Of a stretch of DNA of 11,826 nucleotides, positions 5,021 through 5,105 are shown piece after piece (position 1 is the first letter of the stretch; each line of letters opens with the position of its first letter). The notes beneath the pieces are model-generated. The model worked only from the letters and a program-made list of their open reading frames with translations, was not told the DNA's origin and searched no databases. The position numbers and the translations under genes were made by a program. The DNA is taken from the IMG/VR virus record IMGVR_UViG_2778261065_000019. One strand, written 5' to 3'. This DNA is from a virus (taxonomy: Duplodnaviria; Heunggongvirae; Uroviricota; Caudoviricetes).

Positions 5021-5069
5021 CGCGCCTCCCGCCCCGTGTTCAGGCCCACCCCGCCAGGAGGACCCGTAA
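5021..5069 (-). other. Degenerate cos-like relic (cosQ-like + diverged cosN-like)
   Basis: Minus-strand reading TTTTTACGGGTCCTCC...ACACGGGGCGGGAGGCGCGG aligns with cos copy B (GGACCCG element and CCGCCCCGT core at the same ~26-bp spacing) but the cohesive-end equivalent is diverged (GGGCGGGAGGCG vs GGGCGGCGACCT). Confidence 0.4.
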
Positions 5070-5089
5070 AAAAGCCGGATTGCTCCGGC
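5068..5089 (-). terminator. Intrinsic terminator of the replication/ssb operon
   Basis: Minus strand: stem GCCGGA (5084-5089) / TCCGGC (5074-5079), loop, six U (plus A-run 5068-5073), 17 nt past the ssb stop. Near-identical to the 2627-2648 terminator. Confidence 0.6.
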
Positions 5090-5105
5090 TTCTGTCACTC
5101 GTCGC

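Follow-up and report, generated by a model that had tools for sequence, protein, structure and literature searches.

A third cos-like site behind the ssb gene of an EcCICFT073-type chromosomal island, with its closest relatives in lambdoid phages of the DUF1441 terminase type

Why should a small satellite island with two lambda-type cos sites carry a third cos-like site behind its ssb gene, and is that site a decayed copy of the island's own cos or a unit of different origin? The window, by which we mean the whole 11.8-kb stretch of DNA that was analysed, is a phage-inducible chromosomal island (PICI) of the EcCICFT073 type from E. coli. EcCICFT073, which was placed at 1377930-1388900 of CFT073 for the comparison, has the same gene order of int, primase, ssb, E/D-like capsid genes and Rpp. 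Near-identical islands in other E. coli genomes adjoin tRNA-Pro, between yejM and yejO. The island carries its own integrase (int), primase, ssb and Rpp, which confirmed the satellite context of the third site, called cos3 here, and a PerC regulator is also encoded in the window (Pfam). The main features are the following.

10585-11826, minus strand: integrase gene, int (ORF list and Pfam)
6092-7846, minus strand: primase gene (ORF list and Pfam)
5106-5528, minus strand: ssb, a 140-aa ORF (Pfam SSB, E=4.9e-15)
5068-5089, minus strand: intrinsic terminator after ssb, with the hairpin GCCGGAGCAATCCGGC at 5074-5089 and T6 at 5068-5073 (fold -22.6 kcal/mol, z=-4.9)
4893-5067, minus strand: cos3 cassette of 175 bp, cosQ-cosN-cosB, a phage-type cos between two hairpins with presence/absence polymorphism
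4845-4897, minus strand: second strong hairpin, an inverted repeat (AAAAAAGCCCGATAAGG...CTTATCGGGCTTTT; fold -25.6 kcal/mol, z=-3.7)
2655-4690, minus strand: capsid module, bracketed by cos3 and cos2 and headed by a 68-aa ORF (orf68)
3429-4484, minus strand: lambda E-like major capsid protein (Pfam Phage_cap_E, 1.6e-50)
3082-3417, minus strand: D-like decoration protein (Pfam HDPD, 2.1e-18)
2655-3179 as listed, minus strand: ORF downstream of the decoration gene, 137 aa in RefSeq relatives
2547-2648, minus strand: cos2, with a hairpin at 2633-2648, A6 at 2627-2632, cosQ at 2618-2624, a perfect lambda cosN at 2583-2594 and the island-specific cosB GGTGCCACCACCACCAC
2059-2493, minus strand: homologue of rpp (redirecting phage packaging), 144 aa (phmmer against RppC of PDB 6HLK, E=6.5e-31)
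1812-1990, plus strand: cos1, inverted and lambda-type, with cosQ at 1814-1820, cosN at 1844-1855 and a phage-type cosB with ATGTCCGGTTT repeats

The final gene of the replication module is ssb, and cos3 adjoins it directly downstream. Three further elements of the island were observed in passing. Clustered direct and inverted repeats of the form TCAGGTAGA(G/C)AGGGTAGA(T/C)AG, with relatives, lie at 5850-6080, just downstream of the primase gene, and resemble the iterons of replication origins. A perfect palindrome with a 14-bp stem (AATCAGAACTGGATG AACA TCCAGTTCTGATT), followed by a T-run, lies at 4718-4749 (minus strand) just upstream of the 68-aa ORF, and could be an operator or an attenuator. 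Rfam at gathering thresholds gave no match at the cos3 site; its sole matches in the window were a C4 antisense RNA (75.3 bits, 8834-8921) and the Hfq-binding RNA isrK (80 bits, 8943-9019), both on the minus strand in the regulatory region of the island.

The two lambda-type sites provide the reference for cos3. Perfect lambda cohesive ends, GGGCGGCGACCT, occur at 1844-1855 (plus strand) and 2583-2594 (minus strand), within a 75-nt inverted repeat. Rpp-type cos sites have been described as carrying R3-PICI and an rpp start near bp 102 (PMC9026076, Murialdo & Feiss 2022). All of these features were found in cos2: its cosN is identical to that of lambda, an island-specific R3 occupies bp 48-65, and the rpp start codon falls at bp 102. 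The match of cos2 to phages was confined to cosQ-cosN, up to about bp 50, beyond which lies a private Rpp-type cosB. EcCICFT073 has a cos2 arrangement like that of the window, and our cos2 is presumably the 'cos1' of the EcCICFT073 papers (PMC9026076, PMC6739421). The inverted site, cos1, showed 92.2% identity to the whole Rz-Nu1 cos region of phage PhiR12_1, and its cosB-like ATGTCCGGTTT repeats lie at 1891-1915 and 1948-1993. Together, cos1 and cos2 correspond to the two published EcCICFT073 cos sites (PMC6092414, PMC6739421), in neither of which the 2018 study (Fillol-Salom et al.) found a phage cosB.

The repeat shared by cos2 and cos3

The original prediction held that a block repeated at two operon ends marks a third, degenerate relic of the island's lambda-type cos, together with a duplicated terminator. 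A repeat search of the window recovered the block as a 31-nt direct repeat, 2618-2648 versus 5059-5089, with 29 of 31 positions identical (94%). The block was present as first written, except that a C/T between GGACCCG and the A-run had been left out. It contains a GC-rich terminator hairpin, T6 and the cosQ heptamer GGGTCCT, and a terminator-cosQ module is indeed duplicated at the two operon ends. The heptamer occurs three times in the window (1814-1820 on the plus strand; 2618-2624 and 5059-5065 on the minus strand), once for each cos-like site, against 0.73 occurrences expected; six of 200 shuffles reached three.

Both terminator hairpins have a U-run directly 3' and stand at the ends of minus-strand operons, as rho-independent terminators do. 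In the second copy (2627-2648, minus strand), the hairpin at 2633-2648 is joined to A6 at 2627-2632, which is T6 on the minus strand, and the fold reached -18.9 kcal/mol (z -2.5). A consensus terminator and promoter scan of 4400-5300, an interval that spans the ssb terminator and the second strong hairpin, reported neither hairpin and found no sigma-70-like promoter. A probable reason for the misses is pairing of the T-run with the flanking A-run, by which the stem is lengthened.

The likeness of the two sites extended beyond the block. The motif CCGCCCCGT, which is the complement of the cosN left half ACGGGGCGG, lies at 2589-2597 and at 5029-5037. Its distance from the AGGACCC core is 29 nt in the first copy and 30 nt in the second; the two registers therefore agree to within 1 nt, in keeping with the equal distance noted at first. 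Local alignment of 2480-2700 with 4920-5140 joined 2589-2654 to 5029-5096 with a score of 56, and shuffled sequences scored 16.5 +/- 2.3 with a maximum of 35. A similarity confined to the hairpin was rejected on this score, and cosQ, the spacing and the cosN left half were all seen to be shared. When the 31-nt block was masked, the 9-mer alone was left, and it was equalled by 68 of 2000 shuffles with position ignored. Outside the block, the likeness of cos2 and cos3 thus amounted to an in-register 9-mer and a few spacer bases. This extra similarity is short, and therefore it counts solely through being in register.

Anatomy of cos3 and its phage relatives

The interval first proposed, 5021-5098, does contain the site, but the site is larger and reaches left to about 4893 with a full cosB-like region. 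Its elements, all on the minus strand, are the following.

5059-5065, minus strand: cosQ, GGGTCCT, an exact match, 31 bp before the cohesive-end equivalent (5034)
5023-5034, minus strand: cosN cohesive-end equivalent GGGCGGGAGGCG, assigned by analogy with lambda GGGCGGCGACCT and with the LLS annotation GGGCGGCGCGCT
4979-4994, minus strand: R3-like element TCGTCATCATCATCAT, (CAT)n, at bp 41-56 from the putative left end
4943-4978, minus strand: AT-rich spacer between the R-like elements, in the place of lambda's I1/IHF site, holding most differences between island and phages
4903-4942, minus strand: distal cosB, an inverted R-like element AAAAAGATGATGGTTGTGGTT and then AATTTTTGTTCGACATCTTT, with 1-2 mismatches to phages

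The sequence named earlier as the diverged end, GGGCGGGAGGCG, is present on the minus strand from 5034 to 5023, and the cosQ, the cosN left half and the cosB-like region bear out that the site is related to cos. Its description as a degenerate relic of the island's lambda-type cos did not hold. Over about 170 bp (4903-5072), cos3 showed 88-91% identity to the Rz-terS intergenic (cos) region of many intact lambdoid Stx1/Stx2 phages and of prophages, including VT1-Sakai, several Stx2a/Stx2d phages and an O157:H7 EDL933 prophage. In every match inspected, the aligned segment was the noncoding DNA that separates the lysis gene Rz from the small-terminase gene and holds cos. A degenerate lambda cos was therefore rejected, as the seemingly divergent part matches another family of phage cos. 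Two plus-strand ORFs over the site (4821-4982 and 4979-5179) were set aside as probably incidental, since the region aligns to noncoding intergenic DNA of phages. The small terminases of the matching phages belong to PF07278 (DUF1441); the TerS of PhiR12 and that of the CFT073 icd-prophage belong to PF07471 (Nu1) (Pfam).

The conservation was uneven along the site. In an alignment of the three cos sites of the island with five from phages, the cosQ did not vary. Across the 94 nt that span cosQ to the R3-like element, cos3 differed from the closest prophage, L088, at three positions, one of which was a C to A change at cosN position 8 (5027), where the closest phages have C. Overall, the substitutions between island and phages spared cosQ, the cosN left half and the R-like repeats, and fell mostly in the spacer. 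The R3-like element is identical in VT1-Sakai, Stx2d_112808 and L088 and is presumed to be the binding site of the DUF1441 TerS. The R-like elements TCGTCATCATCATCAT and inverted GATGATGG, which flank the AT-rich spacer, are identical to those in phages with DUF1441 TerS. The phage homology stops just before the position of the phage terS ribosome-binding site. The ORF list and Pfam gave no terS downstream of cos3, where a hairpin and the capsid operon are found instead; this is expected for a satellite-borne copy. The features of Rpp-type cos sites (R3-PICI; Murialdo & Feiss 2022) were absent from cos3, in which cosN is GGGCGGGAGGCG, bp 48-65 read CATCATCATGAGCGTAAT and no rpp lies downstream.

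The cohesive-end equivalent deserves closer description. In the multiple alignment, the island cosN was ACG + GGGCGGGAGGCG and its phage counterparts were GGGCGGGCGGCG or GGGCGGGCGGGCG. What had been taken for a diverged end is thus the normal cosN of the DUF1441 phage family, save for the C to A change at position 8. The left half with its ACG flank (5035-5037) is identical to lambda, and an A at position 8 is present also in mEp460-type phages. By hand count, the two-fold symmetry of the 16-bp cosN was 8/16 in cos3, whereas both lambda and the version of the closest phages reach 10/16; the C to A change accounts for the drop. The exact variant GGGCGGGAGGCG was found in 17 viral contigs; 11 of these were also captured by a second scan, in all of which it was an ssb-linked island copy, and in none of these 11 did it lie beside terS. 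In phage LLS, which has a related TerS, a 12-nt 5' cohesive end GGGCGGCGCGCT is annotated at the homologous position and GGTCATCATCATCATG occupies bp 43-58; according to the LLS paper, the sequence was completed across the cos site by PCR. A phage record beginning exactly at a cos3-type cosN was not found, and the mEp460_4F5 record begins 5 nt before the predicted end.

Two side observations concern these motifs. Among close DUF1441-type lambdoid relatives, the cohesive-end equivalent varies in both length and sequence (GGGCGGGCGGCG, GGGCGGGCGGGCG, GGGCGGGTCGGCG), which is unexpected for a fixed 12-nt stagger. In addition, the Rpp-type cosB motif of cos2, GGTGCCACCACCACCAC (window 2530-2547), resembles the R3-like GGCACCATCACCACCA of a second group of phages with DUF1441 TerS (loci L035/L046/L099) and the (CAT)n motif of cos3, with the motifs about 8 bp apart in register. 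This likeness may hint at where the Rpp binding site came from, or it may be coincidental.

The combination of an intact cosB and an altered cosN could be read as a decoy. In that case, a DUF1441-type TerS/terminase would bind the intact cosB but cut the altered cosN poorly, and its titration would lower helper yield and complement the Rpp interference against Nu1-type phages, in line with the known interference of PICIs with helper packaging (PMC6739421). The cosB-like repeats are fully conserved, the sole core change lies in cosN, and ssb-linked copies are unusually rich in cosN variants. Nevertheless, we consider a decoy improbable. One binding site per island copy would make a weak sink, and cosQ, which is needed for termination alone, is conserved in this cassette type as well. 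Furthermore, nicking by TerL is reported to depend mostly on anchoring by TerS and less on the sequence of cosN (PMC9026076).

The lambda-like part of the site raises another possibility, the alternative offered with the original prediction, in which cos3 would act as a pseudo-cos for a Nu1-type terminase. Such an enzyme, started at cos2, would meet the cosQ and the lambda-like cosN left half of cos3 after about 9.4 kb, and might pause, nick or terminate there and so modulate the packaged size. The two sites are co-oriented, the cosQ is identical to that of lambda, and ACGGGGCGG is identical through the cosN left half. However, the right half of cosN differs at five of six positions, and cosQ and cosN are 31 rather than 30 bp apart. 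EcCICFT073 DNA is packaged in phage-sized units, so early cos sites are skipped (PMC6092414). Above all, cos3 ends could not anneal with cos2 ends, and the resulting non-circularisable DNA would be a cost rather than a function. For this reason, pseudo-termination is the weakest of the rival explanations, and we regard it as highly improbable.

A variable site behind ssb

The position of cos3 differs between islands. EcCICFT073 has its two lambda-type cos sites and a clean empty site at the cos3 position, where the terminator hairpin and T6 are kept and joined through GCGCCC to the second hairpin. This empty site is consistent with the two cos sites reported in the literature, and it sets the limits of the cassette at 4893-5067 of the window, which is exactly the cos unit. 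A clean empty site was also found in L147/L121. The hairpin at 4845-4897 bounds the cassette on the side of the capsid operon, and in empty-site islands it abuts the ssb/PerC terminator directly. The cassette runs from cosQ, stops immediately short of where phages have the terS ribosome-binding site, and holds no gene fragments.

We surveyed 81 ssb loci, namely 80 viral contigs and the window. The cosN left half lay within 160 nt of the ssb stop in 56 of the 81 loci, and 36 of these 56 had the canonical cosQ too; the remaining 25 of the 81 had neither element after ssb. The ssb-linked cassettes were of several types, with differing cosB regions matched to different phage groups. In L099, the ssb-linked cos showed 86.5% identity to the second DUF1441 phage group, and a second cos 2.5 kb downstream showed 89.6% identity to the VT1-Sakai group. 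In L128, a DUF1441 terS is retained in the order ssb-cos-terS. These observations bear out the module shuffling suggested for this position, which is empty in EcCICFT073 and holds other cos cassettes in related islands.

The cassette of the window type was 98.3-100% identical among islands whose neighbouring genes are mosaic, namely ssb (86-100%), orf68 (78-100%) and the capsid gene (92-99%). A search of 5,426 complete E. coli genomes found the cassette at 95% identity or more in about 158 of them, among which is Nissle 1917; in Nissle 1917 the search gave no second match. The island of ATCC 25922 carries the cassette as well. Because the divergent end is the cosN of another family and the cassette is 98-100% conserved, the earlier judgement that the site is probably not cleavable is unsupported, though not disproved.

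A sister PICI family (L051, L044, L034, also L003, L099, L079) carries int, primase, ssb and a ClpP-protease/capsid fusion. Its two VT1-Sakai-type cos sites have the same orientation, are separated by about 2.5 kb and flank the capsid gene, a layout that parallels the cos3-capsid-cos2 arrangement of the window. Lambda cosN, rpp and terS are all absent from the family, and in L051, L044 and L034 the VT1-Sakai-type sites are the only cos sites. Many ssb-linked copies of this family have a mutated cosQ (AGGTACT) and a variable cosN. From these mutated cosQ and additional cosN variants, it follows that the position also contains decaying cos copies.

Two further observations concern this family. 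In the viral contigs L101, L032, L039 and L103, a TerL with 99% identity to the VT1-Sakai protein is encoded within about 0.8 kb downstream of the distal cos of the sister island. Here the island may sit beside the packaging genes of a prophage, as in helper-embedded PICIs (PMC10111431). In L003, a 93-aa ORF without a Pfam match (3655-3936, minus strand) occupies the place of the phage terS, with its start about 227 nt beyond cosQ. It could encode a small factor for DUF1441-type helpers, either like Rpp or derived from TerS.

The survey bears directly on a neutral explanation, according to which cos3 is a hitchhiker or relic without present function. It would be a remnant of an earlier exchange of packaging modules, and its persistence would be due only to its shortness and recent arrival. 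An ancestral island end of the form ssb-cos(-terS), for example, could later have been given the capsid genes, cos2 and rpp, and the terS kept in L128 suggests such an older, fuller module. The cassette is evidently dispensable, as EcCICFT073 and the 25 loci lacking it indicate. The frequent decay of sister-family copies and the position of the island-specific C to A change within cosN also fit a relic. On the other hand, a relic would hardly be expected to be cut exactly to the cos unit, to remain 98-100% conserved while neighbouring genes diverge down to 78%, or to differ from phages only outside cosQ, the cosN left half and the R-like repeats. The presence of different phage-matched cassettes at one position likewise implies repeated acquisition and not a single decay. 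We therefore regard a functionless relic as unlikely, although it is the most probable of the rival explanations.

A candidate role for cos3 and comparison with known systems

With moderate confidence, and on comparative sequence evidence, we propose that cos3 is a complete cos captured from a second lambdoid lineage (VT1-Sakai/Stx, with DUF1441 TerS) and that it widens the helper range of the island. When a helper of the DUF1441 lineage grows, its own TerS would bind the phage-type R elements at 4903-4994 and position TerL on the cosN at 5023-5034. Island concatemers would then be cut and packaged from cos3 to cos3, with no need for Rpp. With Nu1-type helpers (lambda, phi80, 21-like), the island would instead use the Rpp-dependent cos2 and possibly the PhiR12-type cos1, and possession of all three sites would let more kinds of helper mobilise it. 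In the 31-nt block, the island's own terminator hairpin with its T6 would be joined to cosQ; the terminator would end the upstream operon, and the block shared by cos2 and cos3 might act as a homology patch for the exchange of cos cassettes. We infer TerS binding, nicking at 5023-5034 and cos-to-cos packaging from lambda and from the published experiments on EcCICFT073, in which cloned cos sites conferred phage-mediated plasmid transfer and deletion of both sites abolished transfer of the island (PMC6092414). The DNA of VT1-Sakai (Sp15) is packaged in O157 Sakai (PMC2669165).

Capture of a second helper's cos appears to be the best-supported explanation, in view of the trimming to a functional unit, the conserved cosQ, cosN left half and R-like repeats, the repeated occupation of the position and the sister islands that have this cos type alone. 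That cos1 is likewise a 92% copy of a phage cos also counts in its favour. Several observations weigh against it. The cassette is dispensable, the island-specific C to A change lowers the symmetry of cosN, and GGGCGGGAGGCG was not found beside terS in the 11 contigs captured by both scans. Nissle 1917 has the cassette but gave no second match, some other ssb-linked copies are decaying, and the high conservation could reflect recent spread and not constraint.

Somewhat more tentatively, we suggest that PICIs of the EcCICFT073 type keep a dedicated slot behind the replication module, in which cos cassettes can be readily swapped. Cassettes from VT1-Sakai-like phages, from the second DUF1441 group and from mEp460-like phages, together with the Rpp-dependent and the PhiR12-type cos, would then form a modular code for helper range. 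If so, islands such as that of Nissle 1917 would be open to direct, Rpp-independent packaging by Stx-converting lambdoid phages.

Satellites that carry a helper's cos are already known (P4, SaPIbov5, and EcCICFT073 with two sites). A literature search found no account of a third PICI cos, of a cosN other than lambda's in such islands, of a cos slot that varies between islands or of the cos sites of DUF1441 terminases. The present site bears on a question left open in PMC6739421, namely why some PICIs carry different cos sites: here the cos sites of the island trace to different helper lineages, as copies of their cos or, for the Rpp-dependent site, as a private derivative, and one position varies between islands. 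If cos3 is active, helper range would be set partly in cis by small exchangeable DNA cassettes and not by Rpp alone, and Stx-type lambdoid phages would be candidate vehicles for islands of commensal and probiotic strains. For lambdoid phages with a DUF1441 terminase, the cos of which is poorly characterised, the 175 bp would also supply a compact functional definition of that site. An inactive cos3 would nonetheless record, as a clean marker, that phages and satellites have exchanged modules.

Compared with the cos of the VT1-Sakai (Sp15), Stx2 and O157 phages with DUF1441 terminases, cos3 has the same cosQ, 31-bp spacing and cosN left half and identical R-like repeats. The phage site lies between Rz and terS behind an AT-rich hairpin, whereas cos3 lies after ssb, behind a GC-rich terminator and with no terS following, and cosN position 8 is C in VT1-Sakai-type phages and A in cos3. 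With lambda cos, it shares the architecture and order of elements, the cosQ GGGTCCT, the ACG+GGGCGG left half and an upstream hairpin with T-run. It differs from lambda in the right half of cosN (GAGGCG in cos3, CGACCT in lambda), in the cosQ-cosN spacing (31 bp, against 30) and in cosB, which has (CAT)n-type repeats and a cognate TerS of a different family, whereas lambda has R sites and a TerS of the Nu1 family.

Among satellites, EcCICFT073 and the window both have cosQ-cosN-cosB units preceded by the same terminator hairpin. Both published EcCICFT073 sites have the lambda end GGGCGGCGACCT, whereas cos3 has a different cosN, a cosB of the DUF1441-phage type, no rpp behind it and no R3-PICI sequence. 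SaPIbov5 and phage P4 are packaged through the cos of their helper (PMC6092414), and cos3, with its 88-91% identity to the VT1-Sakai/Stx2 cos, likewise matches a real phage lineage. However, SaPIbov5 and P4 each serve one helper type, whereas the island described here holds up to three cos units of different specificity in 11.8 kb, one of them in a polymorphic slot.
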